DNA of 64,000 nucleotides from an uncultured Bacteroidota bacterium (GTDB taxonomy: Bacteria; Bacteroidota; Bacteroidia; Bacteroidales; 4484-276), in contig CALFEP010000306.1 of assembly GCA_937950125.1 (NCBI GenBank), positions 168 through 64,167 of the forward strand, in the 5' to 3' direction. Both the position numbers and the translations under genes were made by a program. The stretch's first letter is position 1. Each line of letters begins with the position of its first letter. Below are positions 2,368 to 14,689 of this stretch, one piece after another. A model generated the notes under the pieces. That model did no database searches. It was given only the letters and a program-made list of their open reading frames with translations, and was not told the origin of the DNA.

Positions 2368-2603
2368 ATTTCGCTGAGAAAAAAAGGATTCATTTTTTTT
2401 AAAGCGAAACATGTTTACTCCCCGGGATAAGCTTAGTAAACCGTCAGGCAGAGCAATTTTGTTGATACGGCGTTCATATACCCTTTTTTTACGTTGAAAA
2501 AAGGGCGGTTTCGATGAAAAAAACGCTTGGATGGAAAGATTCCCAACGATATGCTTTCTTAATCCGTGGCTTACCCGTTGCCTTTTCATTCTATCAAAAA
2601 CAC

Positions 2604-2611
2604 TACTTTTG
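2604..2611 (+). promoter_or_regulatory. Bacteroidota housekeeping promoter -7 element (TACTTTTG) for pcrA
   Basis: Matches TAnnTTTG, 19 nt upstream of GTG 2631. Confidence 0.55.
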
Positions 2612-2630
2612 GCACTCAAAAATTTTTGAT

Positions 2631-4937
2631 GTGAACGATTTTTTAAACGATTTAAACGAAGCCCAGCGAAAGGCAGTTGTGCACCTTGAAGGCCCGGCGA
2701 TGGTAATTGCAGGCGCTGGTTCCGGAAAAACCAGGGTGCTTACCTACCGTGTGGCCTATTTGCTTACCCGCGGGGTTGACCCACACCAGATACTTGCACT
2801 TACGTTTACCAATAAGGCGGCCCGCGAAATGAAGGAACGCATTTTGAAACTGGTTGGAAATACCGATGCGCATAGTGTTTGGATGGGTACCTTTCACGCG
2901 GTTTTTGCCAGGATTCTGCGGGTTGAAGGCCATCACCTGGGTTACCCGTCAAACTATACCATTTACGACACCGACGATAGTAAGAGCCTAATCCGCAGTA
3001 TTTTAAAAGAGCAGGGGCTCGACAGCAAAATCTACCAGCCTGGTTACATCTTGGGGCGAATTTCTGCGGCAAAAAGCAACCTTATTTCAAGTGAGGATTA
3101 CAACAGCAATGATGAATTAATTGCTCAGGACAAAGCTTCGGGTAAACCACTGATGGGAATCATTTTCTCGACTTACAATGCCCGCTGCAAGCGGGCATCG
3201 GCCATGGATTTCGACGATCTGCTGTTCAACATGAACCTGCTGTTGCGCGATAACCCGGAGATTTTGCTCAAATACCAGCAGAAATTCAGATACATTCTGG
3301 TGGATGAATACCAGGATACCAACTATGCTCAGTATCTGATTGTGAAAAAACTGGCTGCCCGTCATGAAAACATTTGCGTGGTTGGCGACGATGCCCAGAG
3401 TATTTATGGATTCAGGGGGGCAAACATCCAGAATATCCTGAATTTCAAAAAAGACTACCCCGACCAGAAAACATTTAAGCTGGAACAAAATTACCGCTCG
3501 ACAAAAAACATCGTCAATGCTGCCAATAGTGTAATTGTTCACAACAGAGAGCAGATTTTCAAGAAAATATGGACCGACAACGAAGAAGGCAACCGGTTGA
3601 AATTAATGCGTGCCACCAGCGATACAGAAGAAGGTAACCTGGTGGCCAACTCGATTTTCGAAATCAAAATGAACAACCAGCTGCCCAACAGCGATTTTGC
3701 TATTTTGTACCGCACCAATGCTCAGTCCCGATCGATGGAAGAAGCTTTGCGCCGGCTCAACATTCCGTACAGGATTTATGGTGGATTGTCCTTCTACAAA
3801 CGCAAAGAAATCAAGGATTTATTAGCCTATTTCAGGGTTGTCGTCAATCCTGCCGATGAAGAATCGCTAAAAAGAATCATCAACTACCCCGCACGTGGCA
3901 TCGGTCAGACGACCATCGACAAACTGGTCGTAGCTTCCGACGAGCTGAAGACCAGCCTTTGGGACGTCCTTATCAATATTGAAAAGCTTTCTCTTGACAT
4001 AAATACAGGCATCAAAACCCGTATCGCAAATTTTGTTACCATGATGAAACGTTTCATGGTGCAGAACAAAAACCGTAATGCCTTCGAGCTGGCTTCCGAA
4101 ATTGCCAAAGCGTCGGGCATCCTGAAAGATCTGGATGAGGACAAAACCCCTGAAGGTATCAGCAGGATTGAAAACCTTGAGGAGTTGCTTAACGGGATCA
4201 AGGAATTTGCTGAAAACGAAATCGAAATCATGTTGTCCGACGGCGACACCTCCGTGCGTACTTTAGACAAATACCTCCAGGAAATTTCGCTGCTCACCGA
4301 CTCGGATTCTGAGGATAAAGACGACAACAACAAGGTTTCGCTGATGACCATTCACAGTGCCAAGGGTCTTGAGTTTCCTTACGTTTACGTGGTTGGGATG
4401 GAGGAAAACCTCTTTCCATCCATCATGTCGCTGCAATCGAGGCAGGATTTGGAGGAAGAACGCCGACTGTTTTATGTTGCCCTCACCAGAGCCGAAAAGG
4501 GCGCCATACTTTCGTATGCCGAAAATCGCTACCGCTGGGGTAATCTTACCAGTTGCGAGCCCAGTCGTTTCCTGGAGGAAATCGATGCTGCATTGATCGA
4601 ACTTCCCCGCAAAGTAGGTTTTCACCCGAGCGATCATCACAAGTTCAGGTCAAACAATGATCAAGCTGCAAAGCCTGCTGTTTCAGGATTAGGCGCTGAT
4701 CGTTTGAAAAAAACAGACAAACCGTCGTCAGCAGCTGATGAAAGTAAAATTCCGTTTGAAGAATCGGACAGCAACATGATAATGACTGGCATGCAAGTGG
4801 AGCATCACAGGTTTGGGCAGGGAAAAGTGATCAGCATCGAAGGCTATGGACCAAACCGTAAAGCCACGGTGTTTTTTCCGGAGGTAGGACAAAAACAGTT
4901 GTTGTTGAAGTTTGCACGGTTGCGAATTGTGGAATAA
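2631..4937 (+). CDS. pcrA: ATP-dependent DNA helicase PcrA/UvrD (SF1A)
   Basis: AGAGSGKT, ALTFTNKAA, DEYQD, VGDDAQSIYGFRGA, LEQNYRS, MTIHSAKGLEF, EERRLFYVALTRA, plus a C-terminal Tudor-like domain (VEHHRFGQGKV). Likely start is GTG 2631 (track: 2514). Confidence 0.95.
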   Translation: MNDFLNDLNEAQRKAVVHLEGPAMVIAGAGSGKTRVLTYRVAYLLTRGVDPHQILALTFTNKAAREMKERILKLVGNTDAHSVWMGTFHAVFARILRVEGHHLGYPSNYTIYDTDDSKSLIRSILKEQGLDSKIYQPGYILGRISAAKSNLISSEDYNSNDELIAQDKASGKPLMGIIFSTYNARCKRASAMDFDDLLFNMNLLLRDNPEILLKYQQKFRYILVDEYQDTNYAQYLIVKKLAARHENICVVGDDAQSIYGFRGANIQNILNFKKDYPDQKTFKLEQNYRSTKNIVNAANSVIVHNREQIFKKIWTDNEEGNRLKLMRATSDTEEGNLVANSIFEIKMNNQLPNSDFAILYRTNAQSRSMEEALRRLNIPYRIYGGLSFYKRKEIKDLLAYFRVVVNPADEESLKRIINYPARGIGQTTIDKLVVASDELKTSLWDVLINIEKLSLDINTGIKTRIANFVTMMKRFMVQNKNRNAFELASEIAKASGILKDLDEDKTPEGISRIENLEELLNGIKEFAENEIEIMLSDGDTSVRTLDKYLQEISLLTDSDSEDKDDNNKVSLMTIHSAKGLEFPYVYVVGMEENLFPSIMSLQSRQDLEEERRLFYVALTRAEKGAILSYAENRYRWGNLTSCEPSRFLEEIDAALIELPRKVGFHPSDHHKFRSNNDQAAKPAVSGLGADRLKKTDKPSSAADESKIPFEESDSNMIMTGMQVEHHRFGQGKVISIEGYGPNRKATVFFPEVGQKQLLLKFARLRIVE

Positions 4938-5031
4938 AATCAATGTTTGGCGATGCTGTTTGATGTAAAAATTGCCTGAAAATTACACTCTTTAAAGATG
5001 CAGGTATTTGTTTTTACAAAATGTCGAAAAT

Positions 5032-7671
5032 ATGGATGCGTTGATAATCAAACAGGTAAAAGAAAAGTTATTTCAACTGGCTGCTCAGCCGGCAACTGGA
5101 ACCCTCGCTTACAGACAAGGTCAAAACCTTTACGTCAATGGGCAAATCAACCTTTTGTCGCACTCCGGTATTCAGTATGATTTTGTTGTTGATGATCATC
5201 ATGGCGATTTTTATGTAAATATTAGCACCGAAAAAGATATCGTTGCGGAGTGTACCTGCAAAAGCAGGCACTTGTGCAGGCATCAGGCAGCTGCACTAAT
5301 GCAGTTGCACGAACTTTTGAAACTCCAGGAAGAAGCCACACCAACCGAAGGAATTAAATATTCACGCAAGGGAATGATGAAACGCGTGGTGGAGGAACGG
5401 GTTGAGAAAGCCCAACGGGCAAATTACAAAATTGAGTTTGCCGACAACATCTATGGCGAACATCACCTGACCAACGAAAAAGGGCTTACCTATCGACTCA
5501 CATTCCGCGACCTTGAGCGAAAACACGGGTACTGTTCCTGTCCCGACTATGGCACCAACAAACTTGGAACCTGCAAACACCTGATCTATGCCTTCGAAAA
5601 CCTTAACCGGAATATGGCAATTGTTCCTGAAGTGCTGCCTGTTTATCCGTTTATCGAAGTATTTTTGAATCCATTCAGAGAACTGAAAATCAGTTGGTTT
5701 TACCCTGAGAAACCCATTGGGGCTGTAGCTGAACTGCTGTACCGTTATTTTGGAAATAAAAATTACATCGAAGATGACCAGGTTGAACAATTTCTGGGTT
5801 TTTTGAACAATGCCAGTGGTTTCAAACAAATTCTTGTTCGCCCCGAGGTGATGAAAAAGGTTGAAAAAGCCCACGAAGCTGCTGCCCTGAAGCAAATTTC
5901 GAAAAATGCCCACTTCGATTTTTCATTATTGAACAAGCCACTGCTCCCTTACCAGGAAACCGGCGTTCAGTTTGTTACTTTTAAAACGGGAGCAATACTG
6001 GCCGACGAAATCGGGCTCGACAAAACCTCACAGGCCATCGCCGCTGCCATCATGAAAAAACAGTTTCTGGGCTTTCGCAGCACACTTGTTATCTGCCCGT
6101 CATCCCTAAAAATTACCTGGAAAAACACCATCGAAAGCCTGACAAACGAACATGCTATTATCGTGCAGGGAACAACCGAAGAACGAACCCTTTTGTACCA
6201 ATCGGGTGAGGCCTTTTTCAAGATTGTAAATTTCGATACCCTGGTTCGCGATCAGCATATCATCCGCCTGTTTCCACCAGATTTGGTAACCATCGACGAT
6301 GCGCAGAAAATTAAAAACTACACCACGGTAACCTCTTCTGCTATAAAATCGATACCCCGCAGGCATACCCTTTTACTCACCAGCTCGCCGCCCGAAAGCG
6401 ATCTGCTTGAACTTTACTCGCTGGTTTTATTTGTTGACCAGGAATTGCTCACGCCTCTGTGGGAGTTTTCGTATCAGCATTGCTACTTCAATCCTGAAAA
6501 CAAAAACAAGGTTGTGGGATATTACGATCTGGATGTTTTGTGGCAAAGGATTAATAAAATAGTACTCCGACGTACAAAAAGTGAAGTCATAAAGCAGTTG
6601 CCTCAAATAATCAACCTTGATGTTCCTGTGAAAACCGATACGCGCCAGGTAAGTCTTCAAATAAAATTTGCATCAGAAGCATTGTCAGTTTTAAGCCAAA
6701 ATATCATCACACCATACGATGTCCGGAAACTCAGCATTTTATTTGAAAAATTGCGCATGACTGCTTCCTCAGTCTCCCTCGTCGAGGAATCCGCAAAAAC
6801 AGCACCCAAAACCGATGAATTGAAAAATATACTGGTTGACAAACTCCGGAACCCTGGCATAGAAAATAAGGTGGTAATCATCACATCATGGCAAAAAATG
6901 TCGAACCTGATTCAGCGTATGCTCCGTATTCAACGGATCAATTTTGTTGAAATTCAGCCTGATATGCCCTCTCATAAAAAAAAGGAACTCGCATTGATGT
7001 TCGGAAAAAATCAGGATGTAAATGTTTTGCTCACAACCGATGACAACGCCAAAGCCATTAATTTTCAACTGGTTGATACCATAATAAACTTTGATATTTC
7101 AGAAAACACCTATTCAAGAAACCACTGGCCAGGAACCATCGACCCGTTGGTAAACCGCAACAAAAGCCTCACCATCATCAACCTTATTTCCGAAAACTCG
7201 GTGGAGGAAATTTTTCGATCCTATCCGGATAACCATAACCTGGCCATTCACAATCTTGCAGCCATCCAGGCTGTTGTTGACGATGGCAAGATCAGGGATT
7301 TCTGGGTTGATAAACTCTCAAATCTGTTGATGATTTTGCAAAACCTTCCTTTGCCCTTTGACGAAAGTACTGAAAAACCTGCAGACGGCAGGCAGATGCT
7401 GATGGATTTTGAGGATGATGCCGATTACCCGCACGACTACCGCGCAGTAATTTTAAGCGGGACGAATCCGGAAATACTGCCTGAAACCAAAACTGAAAAT
7501 CCTGAATTTGACAAAGAAATAATGGAAAAAGCAGTAAAAGGCGGCATTTCAATCATTTCGGAACTTTACAAAGCATCAACCGGCGCCGAAATTCAGCTTT
7601 TAAACGAATCATTGACCATTAATTCTGATACAAACGAAATTATTATCCGACTGAAAAAGGTTAAAAAGTGA
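5032..7671 (+). CDS. SWIM zinc-finger + SNF2-family helicase-like protein with degenerate ATPase motifs
   Basis: SWIM motifs CTCKSRHLCRH and CSCPDYGTNKLGTCKH. SNF2 scaffold LLPYQETGV, ILADEIGLDKT, VICPSSLK, IDDAQKIKN, LRRTKSEV. Likely start is ATG 5032. Confidence 0.85.
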   Translation: MDALIIKQVKEKLFQLAAQPATGTLAYRQGQNLYVNGQINLLSHSGIQYDFVVDDHHGDFYVNISTEKDIVAECTCKSRHLCRHQAAALMQLHELLKLQEEATPTEGIKYSRKGMMKRVVEERVEKAQRANYKIEFADNIYGEHHLTNEKGLTYRLTFRDLERKHGYCSCPDYGTNKLGTCKHLIYAFENLNRNMAIVPEVLPVYPFIEVFLNPFRELKISWFYPEKPIGAVAELLYRYFGNKNYIEDDQVEQFLGFLNNASGFKQILVRPEVMKKVEKAHEAAALKQISKNAHFDFSLLNKPLLPYQETGVQFVTFKTGAILADEIGLDKTSQAIAAAIMKKQFLGFRSTLVICPSSLKITWKNTIESLTNEHAIIVQGTTEERTLLYQSGEAFFKIVNFDTLVRDQHIIRLFPPDLVTIDDAQKIKNYTTVTSSAIKSIPRRHTLLLTSSPPESDLLELYSLVLFVDQELLTPLWEFSYQHCYFNPENKNKVVGYYDLDVLWQRINKIVLRRTKSEVIKQLPQIINLDVPVKTDTRQVSLQIKFASEALSVLSQNIITPYDVRKLSILFEKLRMTASSVSLVEESAKTAPKTDELKNILVDKLRNPGIENKVVIITSWQKMSNLIQRMLRIQRINFVEIQPDMPSHKKKELALMFGKNQDVNVLLTTDDNAKAINFQLVDTIINFDISENTYSRNHWPGTIDPLVNRNKSLTIINLISENSVEEIFRSYPDNHNLAIHNLAAIQAVVDDGKIRDFWVDKLSNLLMILQNLPLPFDESTEKPADGRQMLMDFEDDADYPHDYRAVILSGTNPEILPETKTENPEFDKEIMEKAVKGGISIISELYKASTGAEIQLLNESLTINSDTNEIIIRLKKVKK

Positions 7672-7697: not shown

Positions 7698-10600
7698 ATG
7701 AACCAAAAAACAATCATAAATTGTCTTTTTATTATCGTTTTTTCAATTTTGCCAGGTTTTCTTTTGGCACAAACAGCCGACCAGTGGCTTGATCAGCCTG
7801 TTTTCAATAAACTAAATGCACAGGAAGGCCTGTCTCAAGGCAGGATTTCTGACATCATTCAGGACAGCGCCGGATTTATGTGGTTTGGCACACGCGATGG
7901 ATTGAACCGGTGGGATGGTTATTCCATGCAGGTTTATAAAAATTCACCCGGCAACCCAAATTCAATTCAATCCAACATTATCGAAAAAATATTGATGGAT
8001 AATAAAGGCGTACTTTGGATTCTGACAGGAAAAGGCCTTTGTAAACACCAACCAGGCACCGACATCTTTACCCCTTATGAAATACCGGGCAAAATAGATG
8101 AATCGAAGATTTTTGACTTTAATTTCGATAGAGCAGGAAAACTATTGTTGGCTACCCACGCCCAAGGCCTGATCGAAATAGATACTGCCACTCTAAAATT
8201 GACAGAATACAACCTTTCAGGTGTTCTTGATGCAAATGATGATATCCGCCTGATATTTGTCAGCAAAGACAATAAAGTATGGTTGAGCAAGCGCAAAGGT
8301 GGCGCCCTTTTATTCGACCGCACCGTTAAAACTCCGGTGTCAATTAAATCCCTATTAAAACAAACCTTGAATATCGACTTACATTACATCACGTCAATCG
8401 TCGAAGATAATGACAACAATTTGTGGATGGGAACCGGAGATACCGGGCTAATTTTTGTTGATACCAAAAAATTGGCTTTAAAAAGTTTTTTCTTTCTTGA
8501 GAATGGAGATTATTTGCAGGGAAGAGTGATTTTGGATTTGATGTACTGTGATGATGATAATATTTGGATTGGCACTGATTCCGAAGGACTTGTATGTTTC
8601 AACATTAAAAATCATATTGTCAGGCAATTCAGGGAAGGCGAAACCGAAAACAATCTTCTATACAAGACCATCAGTTCGCTGTATTTCGACAGAAGCGGTA
8701 ATTTGTGGATCGGTACCAACGGCAAAGGATTGAATATCCTTAGCCCATTTTCCAAAAAGTTTTATTCGGTTACAAAAAACACAGCATCCACCCTGAATCT
8801 GAGTTTTGAAAGCGTCAGGTCAATTTATGAAGACAAAGACAATATTCTGTGGGTGGGAGGTTACAGCGGGATGCAACGAATTGATTTTCAAAAAAACACA
8901 TCAGAACTTGCAGCGCCACACGTAATCTATTCGATTTGCCCCGACCCTGAAGATGATAACATTTTGTGGCTTGGCACCGAAGGTGGAGGTTTGAAACAAT
9001 TTGATAAATCCAACCGACAATTAACAGCGTTGCCGGTTTATAATGAATATGGTGAAAAACCCTTATCCGATGATATGCTTCATGGATACCGGATTTACGA
9101 CATCCTTGCCGCTCCCGACAACCGTTTACTCATCGCCACAGCTCAGGGGCTCAATGTTTTTAATCCCAGAACGAAAACGTTCAGGTTTCTCAAAATTAAT
9201 TTGCCTGACCCGTCGTACATGATCGAAAGCGGATTGACTACCATTTATTATGACAGCCATAATTGCCTGTGGTTAGGCACTTTTACCGAAGGTTTGATAA
9301 AAATGAACAGCGATTTTTCCGCCGCCAAAAACTTTACCAACAAGCCCGAAAAGCAGGATTTGCCTGGTAACAGGGTAAACTGTATTCATGAAGACAGCCA
9401 GGGAAGATTCTGGATTGCAACCAATATGGGGCTGTGTATGATGGACAGGGATACCGAAAGTTTTACTACTTACACCGAAGCCGAAGGGCTGCCCAACAAC
9501 ACCGTTTACGGAATACTCGAAGACAGCCTGGGGCACTTGTGGTTGAGCACCAATAACGGGATTTCCAATTTCAACCCCAATGAAAAAACCTTTAAAAATT
9601 ATAATCAGTCCGACGGTCTGCCAGGTAATGAGTTTAACTCGGCTGCTTACTTTCAGTACAACAAATCAAGGCTCTATTTTGGAGGCGTCGATGGTTTGGT
9701 GGCTTTCAACCCTCAAAATGTAGTATCGGACGAGGAACCACCAGCGATGAATTTCACCAGAATGAAAATCTTTTATTCTGACACGGTTTACAATATCAAT
9801 TTATCCAACAAATCCTACGTTGAAATAAATCCAAATGCAATCCTGCTTGAAATCGAGTTTTCAGCTTTTAATTTTATCAATCCATACGATTGCAGTTATG
9901 CTTATCAGTTTGGCGAAAAAACGCTGGATTGGATAAATCTCGGAAACAAACGAATCATCACCCTTACAAACCCTTCACATGGTGAGTATGTTATTAATAT
10001 TAAAGCTTCTAACAGCGATGGCTTTTGGAATAACGATCCAAAGACCCTAAGAATCCTCGTACTCCCGGAGTTTTACCAAACACTTTGGTTTCGCATCATG
10101 ATAATTACAGTTATCCTTGCGGGTATTGTGTTTGTTTTTTACCTCAAACAAATTATCCATGCGCAACAGCAAAAAAAATTACAACTTCTCATCGAGCAAC
10201 GCACCAGGGAACTAAGTGCTGCAAATATTGAACTTAACCGCGCAAATGCTTCAAAAGACAAGTTTTTTTCCATCATCGCACACGATCTGAAAAATCCATT
10301 CAACTCTTTGTTAGGGTTTACCGATCTGTTGGTTGATGAATGGAAAAAAATGAACGACAATGAAAAACATGACATCGTTAAAATTCTGAAAAATACTATT
10401 GAAAACACTTATGATTTGCTCCTGAATTTATTGGAATGGTCGAAGTTGCAAAGAAAAAAGTCGTTGCCAGTGCCCGAGCAATTCAAAATTTCAGAAGTAA
10501 TTGATGATATTGTTTCTCAACTCAACGTTATCAGCGAATTAAAAAACATCAGCATCGAAACAGAAATCATTAAAGATCAATGGATTTATTATGATCTTAC

Positions 10601-10964
10601 CATGTTTGGCACCATTATAAGAAACCTTGTTGGAAATGCCATAAAGTTTTCACATAAAAATGGGAAAATAGTAATTAGCGCTTACAGCGAAAATGAGGAT
10701 TTTATAATTTGTAAAGTAAGAGACAATGGAATTGGAATGGACGAAGAAAGAACCAGACAGATTTTTGATGAAGACAACATTCAATCAACACCCGGAACGG
10801 GAGGAGAAACGGGCACCGGACTTGGTCTTGCAATTACCCACGAATTTGTCAAACTAAATGGAGGTAAGCTTTTTGTAGAAAGCAAACCTGGCGAAGGAAG
10901 TAGTTTTTACTTTTCTATCCCAACCAAAATCCCAGGTGAAATCTTACCTCAAAATGAGGCTTAA
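7698..10964 (+). CDS. Membrane sensor histidine kinase: beta-propeller repeats + Y_Y_Y + HisKA + HATPase
   Basis: Repeated D..G.LWIGT units, Y_Y_Y region (GEYVINIKASNSDGFW), TM helix, FSIIAHDLKNPF, RNLVGNAIKF, DNGIGM, GTGLGL. No receiver or AraC domain. Confidence 0.9.
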   Translation: MNQKTIINCLFIIVFSILPGFLLAQTADQWLDQPVFNKLNAQEGLSQGRISDIIQDSAGFMWFGTRDGLNRWDGYSMQVYKNSPGNPNSIQSNIIEKILMDNKGVLWILTGKGLCKHQPGTDIFTPYEIPGKIDESKIFDFNFDRAGKLLLATHAQGLIEIDTATLKLTEYNLSGVLDANDDIRLIFVSKDNKVWLSKRKGGALLFDRTVKTPVSIKSLLKQTLNIDLHYITSIVEDNDNNLWMGTGDTGLIFVDTKKLALKSFFFLENGDYLQGRVILDLMYCDDDNIWIGTDSEGLVCFNIKNHIVRQFREGETENNLLYKTISSLYFDRSGNLWIGTNGKGLNILSPFSKKFYSVTKNTASTLNLSFESVRSIYEDKDNILWVGGYSGMQRIDFQKNTSELAAPHVIYSICPDPEDDNILWLGTEGGGLKQFDKSNRQLTALPVYNEYGEKPLSDDMLHGYRIYDILAAPDNRLLIATAQGLNVFNPRTKTFRFLKINLPDPSYMIESGLTTIYYDSHNCLWLGTFTEGLIKMNSDFSAAKNFTNKPEKQDLPGNRVNCIHEDSQGRFWIATNMGLCMMDRDTESFTTYTEAEGLPNNTVYGILEDSLGHLWLSTNNGISNFNPNEKTFKNYNQSDGLPGNEFNSAAYFQYNKSRLYFGGVDGLVAFNPQNVVSDEEPPAMNFTRMKIFYSDTVYNINLSNKSYVEINPNAILLEIEFSAFNFINPYDCSYAYQFGEKTLDWINLGNKRIITLTNPSHGEYVINIKASNSDGFWNNDPKTLRILVLPEFYQTLWFRIMIITVILAGIVFVFYLKQIIHAQQQKKLQLLIEQRTRELSAANIELNRANASKDKFFSIIAHDLKNPFNSLLGFTDLLVDEWKKMNDNEKHDIVKILKNTIENTYDLLLNLLEWSKLQRKKSLPVPEQFKISEVIDDIVSQLNVISELKNISIETEIIKDQWIYYDLTMFGTIIRNLVGNAIKFSHKNGKIVISAYSENEDFIICKVRDNGIGMDEERTRQIFDEDNIQSTPGTGGETGTGLGLAITHEFVKLNGGKLFVESKPGEGSSFYFSIPTKIPGEILPQNEA

Positions 10965-11262
10965 AAACTATGTCGAATTGAACGCTTCAGCAACTGCTAA
11001 TAGATTATTTGAACCTTGCGTGTAAAATAAATTTTTGACGCCTGTCTGGTATTGATCGTATTGTAAATCCTGCTCAGAAGTTTGGACAAATGGGTCAAAA
11101 ACAGGTGTCTTTTTTTGGTCGTGTTTTTCCGTGTTACTAAGATTGTCATTTTGTTTAATGTTTTAATTTATTTATTAAACAAAAAGAATTGGTAAAAGTT
11201 TCTGAAAATGATTTTTTTTTATTAAAAAAGTGATATCAATCAGATTATTAATATTTTAAAAA

Positions 11263-12105
11263 ATGAATAAATCAGATCTTGTAAAGTTGATCAAAGAAAA
11301 AAGATCGTTTTTGTGTATTGGACTCGATACTGATCCTGAACAAATTCCTGCGCATTTAAAATCATCTGACGATCCGGTGTTTGAATTCAACAGGCTGATT
11401 ATTGATGCAACACACACATACACAGTAGCATACAAGCCAAATCTTGCATTTTACGAAAGTCAGGGTGTTAAAGGCTGGCAGAGTCTTGAAAAAACCATGA
11501 ACTATCTTAAAAACTTGAGGCATGAGGTTTTTACCATTGCTGATGCCAAGCGGGGAGACATTGGAAACACATCGGAACGTTACGCCAGGGCTTTTTTGGC
11601 TGCAGCGCCTGCCGGCTTTGGTTTCGATGCCATCACGGTAGCCCCTTACATGGGGCACGATTCAGTAAAACCGTTCCTTGCGGTGAAAGATAAATGGATA
11701 ATTCTGTTGGCGTTGACGTCCAATCCGGGCGCTTTCGATTATCAAACCCTTCAGCTCGAAAATGGCCATGCTTTGTACGAGCACGTTATCAAAACTGCTA
11801 CAGCGTGGGGGAGTGATGAAAATCTGATGTTTGTAGTAGGCGCCACTCGGTCAGAAATGCTTGTCAGAATCAGGAACATAATTCCTGATCATTTTTTGCT
11901 GATACCGGGAGTGGGCGCCCAGGGAGGCACATTGGCCGAAGTTGCACAATATGGAATGACAAAAGAGTGTGGATTGCTTGTAAATTCTTCGCGGGCAATA
12001 ATTTATGCTTCAAACGGCGAAGATTTTGCCTTGAAAGCCGGTGAAGCAGCTCGTGAAATGCAGAAGGAAATGGAAGACGCATTGATAATTAAAGGATTAT
12101 TGTGA
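11263..12105 (+). CDS. pyrF: Orotidine-5'-phosphate decarboxylase (type 2)
   Basis: LCIGLD, YKPNLAFYE, DAKRGDIGNT, TVAPYMG, TSNPG, PGVGAQGG, NSSRAII. Confidence 0.95.
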   Translation: MNKSDLVKLIKEKRSFLCIGLDTDPEQIPAHLKSSDDPVFEFNRLIIDATHTYTVAYKPNLAFYESQGVKGWQSLEKTMNYLKNLRHEVFTIADAKRGDIGNTSERYARAFLAAAPAGFGFDAITVAPYMGHDSVKPFLAVKDKWIILLALTSNPGAFDYQTLQLENGHALYEHVIKTATAWGSDENLMFVVGATRSEMLVRIRNIIPDHFLLIPGVGAQGGTLAEVAQYGMTKECGLLVNSSRAIIYASNGEDFALKAGEAAREMQKEMEDALIIKGLL

Positions 12106-12142
12106 CAATTGACGTTTCATTTATACATTTTTATTTATTAAA

Positions 12143-14689
12143 ATGAAAAGCAAACACGCCAAAAACTATTCTCCCTTCGCATCCATAATCATTGTTTTTC
12201 TTACCCTGATTCTTCCTCTTGTTTATTTCAAAAGTACACTGGACCCCGTATTGTTGCCAAGGCTGCTGTTTCTGAATATCTTATTAACAGGGGTGTATCT
12301 GTTCTTACTACTAAGTAAAAACCCTGCTTATCAAGATGCGTCAATACTTAGGCGATGGGTGTTTGTGCTGCTGTTTGGTTATTTTGCAATTACGGTAGTT
12401 TCTGGTTTCTGGGCACTCAATTTCAGAGAGGGGATTTTCGACATGGTTAAAACTTTTTCGGTTTTTTCACTTGTTGCAGTCATTGCGTTGATTTTCAACC
12501 AAACTATCAACTGGCGCGAAAAATTGGTAAAATCTGTGGTTGTTGCAGCCATATTGTCATTATTTATCGGTTTTTACCAATATGTTCAAAATGTAATTCT
12601 TTCCACCAATCCATGGTTGCCCGATGGCAGTCCGGTGGTTTATTCGGTCAAAGGTTTGATGGCACACCGCAACCAATATGCAATCTCGTTGATGCTTATG
12701 CTACCTTTTACACTTTATGGAGTTTTTATTTTTAAAAATAAATGGAAATGGGCTGCTTTGGTATCCTCATTATTAATACTGATACTCATATTTTTATTGC
12801 AGGTAAGGAGTGTTTGGGTTGGTTTATTTGTTGCGGCCATTGTAACATTTTTCAACATCATAATTTTTGGCAAAGACACTATTGTTAGAAAAAAATATTG
12901 GGTCACTGGTGTGTTGATTGCCCTGGCCATGGGTGTGTTTTCTGTTTTTCTAGTAAGGAATTTTTTACCTGCGGGCGACAACATATTGAAGAGCAATAAC
13001 CCGAATTCACTCGATCCTTATTCTGCCAAAAATATTAACCGGTTCAAAATCTACAATGTGTCAACTGAAATGATTTTACGACACCCAATTACCGGGGTTG
13101 GTGCCGGAAACTGGAAGATTCACTCGCCCACATATTTCACTAATTATCACTTCGATAGGGATGAACTCATCTGGTTGCGGCCACATAATGACTACCTTTG
13201 GGTTGCCTCCGAAAAAGGGATTCCCGGGTTATTGATTTTTCTTGGAATTTTTGCCATTACACTTTATTATCTTTATAAAATACTGATTACCAACATAGAG
13301 ATAAATTTAAAAATTTTTGCATTGTTCCTGATGGGAGGGGTTATTGGTTACATGGTTGTTTCACTTTTTTCGTTTCCACTCGAAAGAATAAACCAACAGG
13401 TGTATCTTTCGCTATTAATAGCTTCATCGGTTGTGATTTATCACAACAACTTTCCGGATAAACCAAAATCTTTCCAAATCCGGAAAGTTTTATTCTTAGC
13501 CTTGCCATTGCTGGTTTTCGGTGTAGTTTACGGTATTTCGGAAGTCAACATGGAAATTTTGGTGAAAAAAGCCAGAGGTTTGCAAATGCAGTCGAACTGG
13601 CCAGGGTTGTTATCGGAATCGAGAAAAATACCACAAACCTTTAAAAATATTGATGTTGAGGGAATGCCGATCAATTGGTATCCGGGGCTGGCAGCTACCA
13701 ATATGCGCGATTTTGAAACCGCAATAAAAGAATACGGGAAAGCCGTTGAAACCTTTCCATCAAATGTGAAGGTGCTGAATAACCTGGGTCAGGCATATAT
13801 TGAAACCGGAATGTACGAAAAAGGCCTGGAATGTTGCCAAAGGGCGGTTTCAGTCCTGAATTATTATCCTGAGGCTTTTGTAAACATGTCGTGGGCATAT
13901 TTTAAAATGAATCGTTTTGAAGAAAGCATGGAAATGCTTTTAAAAATCAGGGATTATGACCGAACACAACTGATTAAGCAGATGATGAATAAAATTATGC
14001 TCCAGGATTCGTTTTTAACAAGACATCACTACGATTTTAAAAAGTACACCTATACAGGTAGCATTGTATCCAAGTATCAACAAACGATTGACCTTGTGCC
14101 CCACTGGAAAGAAGCTTTAATGAAAAAGGCAGCTTTTAAAAACATTGTCCTCAGCAAAGCCATATTGGAAGATGCCTGCTACATTGCTCAAAAAAATGAA
14201 CCAGAGAAGTTCTTTGCCTGGTACGGTGCTGAATACTACAAAACTCTGATAAGGAACGATTCAGCCTGGATGAAATCGATAAAAGAGAAAAGCGCGAAAA
14301 ATAATATTGCTGAAGAAGAACAGCTTGAACTTGACGCGAACTATCTTTTTAAGCAGGAGCAACCGGATATTTACAAGAAACATGGCATGATCATAACACA
14401 AAAACAAAAACTGCTCAACGAAACTAAAGTGATCGATTTTATTGCTGGGAAAGCAAAAAAATGTAACATGTCCTTTGAAGAAATGCTGGATGTTTACGCT
14501 GGATATCTCATTGATCTCCAATTAAGAACCATTGACCCACTCGAAAAGAAATTGGCCGAAACAGTTGAGCTGATTAAAGACAACCACAACTGGTACAAGC
14601 AGGTGGTTTTAAAATCAAGATTCATTAACAAGCCTTTGGACGAAACCTTATGGAGGGAAGCTTATTATGTTTTAATGCAGGAACGATAA
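12143..14689 (+). CDS. O-antigen ligase (Wzy_C)-family membrane protein with TPRs and a repeated C-terminal domain
   Basis: About 12 hydrophobic segments, RSVWVG, GVGAGNW, PHNDYL, TPR-like helices (KAVETFPSNVKVLNNLGQAY), then four ~54-aa repeats. Confidence 0.8.
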   Translation: MKSKHAKNYSPFASIIIVFLTLILPLVYFKSTLDPVLLPRLLFLNILLTGVYLFLLLSKNPAYQDASILRRWVFVLLFGYFAITVVSGFWALNFREGIFDMVKTFSVFSLVAVIALIFNQTINWREKLVKSVVVAAILSLFIGFYQYVQNVILSTNPWLPDGSPVVYSVKGLMAHRNQYAISLMLMLPFTLYGVFIFKNKWKWAALVSSLLILILIFLLQVRSVWVGLFVAAIVTFFNIIIFGKDTIVRKKYWVTGVLIALAMGVFSVFLVRNFLPAGDNILKSNNPNSLDPYSAKNINRFKIYNVSTEMILRHPITGVGAGNWKIHSPTYFTNYHFDRDELIWLRPHNDYLWVASEKGIPGLLIFLGIFAITLYYLYKILITNIEINLKIFALFLMGGVIGYMVVSLFSFPLERINQQVYLSLLIASSVVIYHNNFPDKPKSFQIRKVLFLALPLLVFGVVYGISEVNMEILVKKARGLQMQSNWPGLLSESRKIPQTFKNIDVEGMPINWYPGLAATNMRDFETAIKEYGKAVETFPSNVKVLNNLGQAYIETGMYEKGLECCQRAVSVLNYYPEAFVNMSWAYFKMNRFEESMEMLLKIRDYDRTQLIKQMMNKIMLQDSFLTRHHYDFKKYTYTGSIVSKYQQTIDLVPHWKEALMKKAAFKNIVLSKAILEDACYIAQKNEPEKFFAWYGAEYYKTLIRNDSAWMKSIKEKSAKNNIAEEEQLELDANYLFKQEQPDIYKKHGMIITQKQKLLNETKVIDFIAGKAKKCNMSFEEMLDVYAGYLIDLQLRTIDPLEKKLAETVELIKDNHNWYKQVVLKSRFINKPLDETLWREAYYVLMQER

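Follow-up and report, generated by a model that had tools for sequence, protein, structure and literature searches.

The window analysed here, a stretch of 64,000 nucleotides, derives from an uncultured sludge bacterium of the family Lentimicrobiaceae (Bacteroidales), whose metagenome-assembled genome (MAG) comes from a bioreactor-sludge metagenome. Between a pcrA/uvrD gene and a sensor histidine kinase gene lies gene A, which encodes a double-SWIM SNF2 protein, P0001, with eroded ATPase motifs (Table 1). The longest mechanical open reading frame (ORF) of gene A runs from a TTG codon at 5008 to 7671 on the forward strand, and the entry in a public protein collection (P0002, 887 residues) uses this start. 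The ATG at 5032 is favoured because it aligns with the N-termini of homologues, and gives a protein of 879 residues. P0001 matches the Pfam models SNF2-rel_dom (E = 1.3e-25; 90.5 bits, cut-off 24.9), Helicase_C (E = 2.7e-8; 34.5 bits, cut-off 23.5) and SWIM (E = 7.3e-5; 22.7 bits, cut-off 19.6), the last covering C74/C76/C82/H84. Its domains and its two-RecA-lobe fold place it in the SNF2 family, and the SWIM signature CxCxnCxH, with zinc ligands predicted from sequence, occurs twice. The original prediction, made from the nucleotide sequence, had described an intact 879-codon double-SWIM SNF2 ORF with both Cys/His sets intact; ORF analysis, Pfam and homologue alignment confirm it, the two sets being C74/C76/C82/H84 and C168/C170/C181/H183. 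The intact motifs I (GxGKT), II (DExx), III, V (GG) and VI (QxxxRxxRxGQ) of an SNF2 enzyme are not found in P0001.

Table 1. Features of gene A, its neighbours and its paralogue. Positions refer to the window unless a contig is named; 'clade' is the eroded-motif clade described in the text.
Feature	Position	Strand	Description	Basis
Gene A	5032..7671	+	Double-SWIM SNF2 protein P0001, 879 residues, eroded ATPase motifs	ORF, Pfam, homologue alignment
N-terminal module	5032..5916	+	Residues 1-295; two beta-sheet plus SWIM units, then an alpha/beta subdomain	AlphaFold2, predicted local distance difference test (pLDDT) about 89-90
SWIM 1	5251..5283	+	Predicted zinc ligands C74-x-C76 ... C82-x-H84	Pfam SWIM; 60/60 in clade
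SWIM 2	5533..5580	+	CSCPDYGTNKLGTCKH (C168, C170, C181, H183)	Pattern; ligands 60/60 in clade
Motif I (Walker A)	6013..6027	+	G328-T332, GLDKT against GLGKT in CHD1L; G330 replaced by D, K331/T332 kept	
Motif II (Walker B)	6295..6306	+	D422-Q425, DDAQ against DEAH in CHD1L; E423D	
Motif III	6379..6399	+	TSSPPES against TGTPIQN in CHD1L; family consensus TGTPIEN	
Family-specific block	6454..6489	+	PLWEFSYQHCYF	Invariant columns P475, L476, W477, F479, S480, F486
RecA-like lobe 2	6832..7221	+	Residues 601-730; fold kept, catalytic motifs lost	AlphaFold2, identity profile
Motif V	7033..7068	+	TTDDNAKAINFQ against consensus STEAGGxGLNLQ; all three glycines gone	
Motif VI	7120..7155	+	From N697, NHWPGTIDPLVN against family consensus NQRIGRIDRIGQ; R702T, R705P	
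C-terminal tail	7522..7668	+	Residues 831-879; helix and beta-hairpin	T850, G851, G868, E869 nearly invariant
pcrA/uvrD (upstream)	2514..4937	+	807 residues, C-terminal tudor domain; 94-nt gap to gene A	Pfam
Sensor histidine kinase (downstream)	7699..10964	+	Reg_prop repeats, Y_Y_Y, HisKA, HATPase_c	Pfam
Paralogue B	G000:C57:10131-12833	-	P0122, 900 residues; equals L043:10131-12833 and L003:541-3243; same genome as gene A	

The motor motifs were paired by HMMER alignment of P0001 to human CHD1L (7epu). In motif V, TTDDNAKAINF stands opposite STRAGGVGMNL of CHD1L, the glycines now being N, A and A, and in motif VI HWPGTIDPLVNR stands opposite AAARAHRIGQ. SF2/Snf2 enzymes need the motif VI arginine to hydrolyse ATP and to close the lobes (PMC1616948). 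In the 141 family members that fall outside the clade of gene A, 98-100% invariance is seen at the same 27 motif positions, so that the pattern in gene A lies far beyond chance. The CHD1L alignment and the family counts bear out the predicted readings of motifs I-III, V and VI and the loss of both arginine fingers, and the coordinates first assigned to motifs I, II and VI (6013-6027, 6295-6306 and 7120 onward) proved exact. The description of the Walker motifs as degenerate stands in part: G330D and E423D are present, but the Walker A Lys and Thr are kept, and the E-to-D exchange is conservative and private to the window sequence, the three closest orthologues reading DEAQ.

Homologues were collected from a large protein collection (more than 1,100 sequences) and from a genome collection (80 loci). 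They form a family of uncharacterised bacterial double-SWIM SNF2 ATPases of about 880 residues, labelled only 'DEAD/DEAH box helicase' or 'SNF2 family helicase', which outside the Lentimicrobiaceae occurs in Flavobacteriaceae, Chitinophagaceae, Sphingobacteriaceae, Cytophagales, Saprospiraceae, Desulfuromonadales, Marinimicrobia and KSB1. At each of the approximately 70 genome loci outside the Lentimicrobiaceae, the protein has canonical ATPase motifs. These canonical members are full-length and colinear with gene A at 36-48% identity and share its N-terminal module, the PLWEFSYQHCYF block and the C-terminal tail; it is in the near-invariance of the 27 motif positions that they differ from the clade of gene A. 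None of the NCBIfam equivalog and defence-system models claims the family, and no account of it, or of any bacterial SNF2 pseudo-translocase, was found in searches of the full-text literature. Three loci (L052, L123 and L106) carry a Bacteroidales-type gene in records titled as Clostridia, Oscillospiraceae or Synergistaceae MAGs; L052 (SABY01000195.1) equals G019:C83 (GTDB: Lentimicrobiaceae) in extent (4,800 bases) and in match coordinates, and mis-binning or mislabelling is likely.

Among the Lentimicrobiaceae, an A copy is present in 23 of 23 species genomes, usually directly downstream of pcrA. A FastTree phylogeny of 134 sequences sets a 64-member clade with eroded motifs apart from a perfectly canonical set of 70. 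The same split was obtained with IQ-TREE (LG+C20) from residues 1-600 after removal of the motif I-III columns and with no lobe 2 columns; the clade receives 100% SH-aLRT support on a stem of about 0.4 substitutions per site, and its sister (96%) is the canonical orthologue of genome G003, from the same family and at the same pcrA locus. Residues were counted site by site in 60 members inside the clade and 141 outside. Within the clade, R702 is replaced by S (22), N (7), I (6), K (5), T (2) and others, retained in six and deleted in seven; R705 is replaced by P (11), E (8), K (6), G (6), D (5) and others; the glycine positions of motif V are scattered over many residues; and in some members motif VI is deleted entirely. 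The Walker A Lys is kept in 49/60 and T332 in 18/60. D422 and E423 are each kept in 58 members (DEAQ 58/60) and A424 in all 60, as are all eight SWIM ligands.

Conservation along the protein is inverted in this clade, the N-terminal SWIM module being the best conserved part and lobe 2 among the least. Within the clade, mean pairwise identity is 0.58 for the N-terminal module and 0.41 for lobe 2; the corresponding values are 0.47 and 0.74 among canonical members and 0.50 and 0.73 among the SWIM-less members represented by paralogue B. Across the Lentimicrobiaceae clade, constraint has thus shifted away from the motor and onto the N-terminal SWIM module. The SWIM 2 16-mer CSCPDYGTNKLGTCKH is close to invariant across all SWIM-bearing members, and the PLWEFSYQHCYF block is invariant or nearly so alike in motor-dead, motor-live and SWIM-less members. 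The C-terminal tail is common to gene A, to the paralogue P0122, which is colinear to the end, and to canonical members.

The AlphaFold2 model of P0001, built from a 95-sequence alignment, has a mean pLDDT of 81, with values of about 90 for the N-terminal module, 93 for lobe 1 and 85 for lobe 2, whose strands and helices are retained. The poorly defined parts are the motif VI loop (residues 693-698, below 50) and the linker (773-824). Foldseek relates the model to ISW1, Mot1, INO80, ALC1 and Sso1653, with E values of 1e-23 to 1e-26 for ISW1, Mot1 and Sso1653. When the N-terminal 300 residues (5032-5931) were modelled alone (pLDDT 89), no match to a PDB fold was found at E<1e-3; a SWIM piece matches ZSWIM8 with probability 0.98. 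The fold search offered no functional clue beyond that piece, and the double-SWIM N-terminal module, as modelled, is structurally uncharacterised and seemingly of novel fold.

Loss of so many motifs could indicate that gene A is in recent decay as an incipient pseudogene, or that it is an assembly artefact; a disrupted copy in genome G014 shows that such copies occur, and the window is taken from a MAG. The closest orthologues (P0003-P0005; 85%, 70% and 67% identity) nevertheless share the dead motifs, reading GLDKT or GLNKT and N[HR]WPG.[IL]DP.VN, and about 60 clade members, now diverged to 41-48% identity, keep the frame without interruption. Between the window and L039, the locus of the 85%-identical orthologue, gene A has dN 0.081 and dS 0.92 (non-synonymous and synonymous divergence), giving a dN/dS of 0.089 by NG86 and 0.12 by maximum likelihood (ML), alongside 0.049 for pcrA and 0.093 for the kinase gene. 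Among close clade members the regional dN/dS (NG86) is about 0.21 or less throughout, residues 471-600 being without an estimate; it is 0.10 in lobe 2 and 0.09 in the motif V-VI stretch, and highest, at about 0.21, in the linker (residues 731-830) and the C-terminal tail. Some ML estimates from Biopython were unstable for saturated pairs (L039-L040 gave 0.95 at dS 0.24, against 0.065 by NG86), and the inference of selection is based on the unsaturated window-L039 pair and on single-nucleotide polymorphisms (SNPs). Strains about 99% identical occur in independent sludge and food metagenome contigs of 2025, with zero indels in gene A. The 30 strain SNPs within the ORF comprise 26 synonymous and four non-synonymous changes; two of the latter exchange V and I, the other two fall in the variable linker, and the SNPs within the dead motif VI are synonymous (H698H, P700P). 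The gene A sequence has been assembled independently from a bioreactor-sludge sample of 2017 and from the metagenomes of 2025. Together these data effectively refute decay or artefact, to which we assign a negligible probability. The original prediction had proposed a selected pseudoenzyme rather than decay, and the low dN/dS, the 26:4 ratio of SNPs and the dead motifs common to three orthologues support this. It had also named relatives with intact motifs, combined with a dN/dS near 1, as the mark of recent decay: intact relatives are found (G003, G005 and every member outside the Lentimicrobiaceae), but the branch itself shows 0.09-0.12. With homology to active enzymes, loss of the catalytic residues and purifying selection, gene A qualifies as a predicted pseudoenzyme.

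The motor was not lost once at the base of the clade. In genome G005 (genus g6), two contigs carry the A gene between them, its N-terminal half (L020, G005:C187) reading GLGKT, DEAQ and TGTPIES and the C-terminal half (L124, G005:C322:1-870) reading ATETGGSGLNLQ and QRLGRIDRIGQ. P0006 and P0007 are the nearest relatives of each half, and the two halves abut in sequence. This canonical orthologue is nested within the eroded clade with 100% support as sister to P0006 and P0007, each of which lacks one arginine only; a single loss on the stem is thereby ruled out, and erosion must have been parallel. Other sublineages retain different motifs: both arginines persist in P0011 and P0013 and a single one in P0010 and P0016, and many members have GLGKT and TGTP; parsimony on a 64-tip tree requires at least eight changes in Walker A and at least seven in motif III. 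The genus of the window is among the most eroded of the clade. The 'coordinated' loss of catalysis in the original prediction has to be qualified, since across the clade the motifs were eroded piecemeal and in parallel. The most economical account is repeated, parallel erosion after a shared shift in constraint: function or constraint would have shifted on the clade stem, the clade ancestor would still have been canonical, and piecemeal erosion of the motor would have followed repeatedly.

An exhaustive HMMER search added 147 new representatives at 50% identity, at least ten of which are further motor-eroded sequences with SWIM 2 kept and motifs V/VI scrambled; most of these also keep GLGKT and DEAQ. 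To judge from these sequences, motor loss may be recurrent in the double-SWIM SNF2 family. P0132, P0135, P0141 and P0143 form a coherent group with 'TDSK' at motif III. The representatives with scrambled motifs V/VI include these four and P0134, P0149, P0186, P0193, P0207, P0222, P0268, P0176, P0201, P0126 and P0131; P0131 is without SWIM ligands and without ATPase motifs.

Gene A is probably a catalytically dead orthologue of a widespread double-SWIM SNF2 ATPase, kept by purifying selection as a non-motor protein, and we infer from its sequence that it no longer hydrolyses ATP or translocates. Because the double-SWIM module is retained and is more constrained than in active relatives, and lobe 1, the PLWEFSYQHCYF block and the C-terminal tail are kept, gene A is read as a recognition or adaptor protein. 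With both arginine fingers missing, along with the glycines of motif V, motif III and the P-loop glycine, the protein would no longer be capable of ATP-driven lobe closure and translocation. The protein would then act as a static binder or adaptor, its SWIM module and lobe 1 recognising the nucleic-acid or protein target of the family, and might mark or occupy that target or hand it over, for example to the SWIM-less, motor-competent paralogue where one is present.

Several points weigh against this interpretation. The narrow taxonomic span of the clade may explain part of the high N-terminal conservation. In G014, a MAG of 64% completeness, the A copy is broken by in-frame stops (one TGA and three TAA reported) and changes frame between residues ~430 and 478 (L125, G014:C169:9000-13000; match at about 9715-12196 on the reverse strand). 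Either this copy is truly a pseudogene or the MAG is in error; set beside the intact copies it would illustrate real decay, and it would mean that gene A can be dispensable in some lineages. The role of binder or adaptor is a generic one, as even the canonical family is uncharacterised, and a transcript search found no RNA run holding gene A. Lastly, the Walker A Lys/Thr and the acidic Walker B pair survive in gene A, so that nucleotide binding or weak non-canonical hydrolysis is possible.

This last point leads to the proposal that gene A is still an ATPase with an unorthodox active site, or a non-hydrolysing ATP-binding switch. Besides K331/T332 and the acidic residues 422-423 of gene A itself, DEAQ in 58/60 and the Walker A Lys in 49/60 members have persisted despite erosion elsewhere, which hints at a residual nucleotide site on lobe 1 in part of the clade; some members may therefore bind nucleotide there as a switch. 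In gene A such a switch is less likely than in other clade members because of G330D, which would put a carboxylate where the amide of the P-loop glycine contacts phosphate. Gene A has neither arginine finger, none of the motif V glycines and no motif III, and motif VI is wholly deleted in some members. The replacements at R702 (S, N, I, K, T) and R705 (P, E, K, G, D) vary by genus, and there is no conserved alternative catalytic solution. An active or nucleotide-switched gene A product is accordingly improbable, and the non-motor reading is retained.

The original prediction had suggested looking for an active paralogue in the same genome, and one exists. Paralogue B is colinear with A end to end at 34% identity, and its motifs are textbook (GLGKT, DEAQ, TGTPIENR, STEAGGSGLNLQ and QRIGRIDRIGQ); it has lost the ligands of SWIM 1 and SWIM 2 alike, SWIM 2 reading SDSLDSRLNKLGTTKH. 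The SWIM-less B type forms a subclade (99% support) nested among canonical members and is common in other Bacteroidota. Of the 23 Lentimicrobiaceae genomes, 13 carry B, all of them with an eroded A. The two with a canonical A (G003 and G005) lack B, so that no genome combines canonical A with B; it may therefore be that redundancy with B allowed A to lose its motor. It could further be supposed that A, with zinc fingers and no motor, and B, with a motor and no zinc ligands, are subfunctionalised and act together, A being a targeting or regulatory subunit of B. The shared PLWEFSYQHCYF block and C-terminal tail of the colinear pair are consistent with such a split system, as are the mutual exclusion of canonical A and B and the reciprocal degeneration, in which the clade has SWIM ligands in 60/60 members and a dead ATPase and B has a perfect ATPase without SWIM ligands. 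However, six genomes of 94-98% completeness (G002, G004, G006, G011, G015 and G017) have an eroded A and no B, so that a partnership with B cannot be obligatory. The two genes are unlinked, and B is surrounded by genes of housekeeping type (yebC, a cytochrome c gene, DUF3843 and cargo proteins of the type IX secretion system (T9SS), including a T9SS C25 peptidase). The B type is common in other Bacteroidota that are not seen to carry an A partner, the co-occurrence pattern derives from few independent evolutionary events, and characterised bacterial SNF2 enzymes such as RapA work as monomers. A split system is for these reasons rather unlikely.

A third possibility concerns the neighbouring genes, namely that gene A works specifically with PcrA, as an RNA polymerase (RNAP) adaptor, or with the downstream kinase, as an operon-encoded partner. 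The order pcrA-A is found on all three close orthologue contigs and in most Lentimicrobiaceae genera. The kinase follows A on both close-orthologue contigs that extend far enough (L039 and L040/L041) and adjoins it also in L013, L014, L021, L023, L025 and L029. Gene A lies close to both neighbours, 94 nt from pcrA and about 27 nt from the kinase, and a scan for terminators between pcrA, A and the kinase found none that was convincing, although at this Bacteroidota locus the scan for sigma-70 promoters and terminators proved uninformative. The downstream gap depends on the kinase start. The longest kinase ORF begins at GTG 7668 and overlaps the gene A stop by 4 nt, whereas ATG 7699 (MNQKTIINCLF...; hydrophobic N-terminus MNQKTIINCLFIIV) lies about 27 nt after gene A. 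The latter is the more plausible start, matching the 26-nt gap between the gene A orthologue and the kinase in L039, and the overlap in the window may be an ORF-calling artefact. In L040 and L041 the called genes do overlap by 4 nt. Beyond the kinase lie pyrF and a Wzy_C/TPR protein gene.

Against an operon partnership, pcrA adjacency is shared by the canonical orthologue of G003 (and of G005) and hence predates motor loss, and it is absent from the approximately 70 loci outside the Lentimicrobiaceae. Several genomes of genus g3 have lost the pcrA link, and the kinase is confined to genera g1, g2 and part of g3, being missing in g5, g7 and g8. P0001 also lacks a RapA-type N-terminal domain and a match to the RapA model. 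The adjacency to pcrA, offered originally as a functional clue, is family-only synteny that does not specifically point to a role with PcrA or RNAP, and PcrA is set aside as a functional partner. We consider a dedicated partnership with PcrA, RNAP or the kinase highly doubtful.

Comparison with known systems places gene A apart from each of them. RapA/HepA of Escherichia coli, a Swi2/Snf2 ATPase that recycles RNAP, shares the bacterial SNF2 core; unlike gene A, it is an active ATPase and has no SWIM domains. P0001 gave no match to the RapA NCBIfam model NF003426 at E<=0.001, and paralogue B, with its intact motor, scored 76.7 bits against a cut-off of 576. P0001 thus shows neither the model match nor the N-terminal RNAP-binding domains of RapA/HepA; a RapA-like identity is rejected, and the RapA analogy of the original prediction is not supported. 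PADLOC and NCBIfam report only generic SNF2-core similarity to ZorD, DrmD, DpdE and BrxH, far below the equivalog cut-offs (ZorD, for example, 66 bits against 1500). Around gene A, where pcrA, the sensor kinase and pyrF are the neighbours, no defence partner genes were found. With core-only matches and no partner genes near A or B, membership of these defence systems is rejected. Pseudo-ATPases derived from SF2/SNF2 motors are known mainly in eukaryotic complexes. In yeast, Hda2 and Hda3 of the HDA1 complex have SF2/SNF2-like lobes without the ATP-binding motif and act as DNA-binding modules (PMC7793584). Gene A resembles them in its SNF2-type fold without catalytic motifs, reused for binding in Hda2/3, and P0001 matches Pfam HDA2-3 weakly, below threshold (E = 0.0034; 17 bits, cut-off 27). 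Hda2/3 are eukaryotic and ancient, and have the second lobe only, with a coiled coil; gene A keeps both lobes at full length with the SWIM zinc finger as the retained module, and the loss of its catalytic motifs is young enough for canonical orthologues to exist within the same bacterial family.

Beyond the first observation, the analysis adds that erosion was parallel and spread across the clade, that the constraint profile is inverted and that a reciprocal paralogue exists. A wider proposal is that the double-SWIM module performs a function of its own that needs no ATP and repeatedly survives the loss of the motor, and that in the Lentimicrobiaceae functions have been separated into two genes, a zinc-finger reader, A, and a motor, B, which could act as a split remodeller or as antagonists on one target; this is speculative, and we hold it to be on balance doubtful. 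If true, pseudo-translocases would be a recurrent product of the double-SWIM SNF2 family (P0132/135/141/143, P0134, P0149, P0186, P0193/207, P0222 and P0268). For annotation, the label 'DEAD/DEAH box helicase' would be wrong as a statement of activity for a whole clade. One family at one locus offers a natural series from canonical proteins (G003, G005) through those with one arginine lost (P0006, P0007) to gene A, with every motif lost, and Lentimicrobiaceae genomes often add the reciprocal SWIM-less, motor-intact paralogue. The series and the paralogue make it testable what a bacterial SNF2 SWIM module binds, and which SNF2 functions need translocation and which need recognition only.

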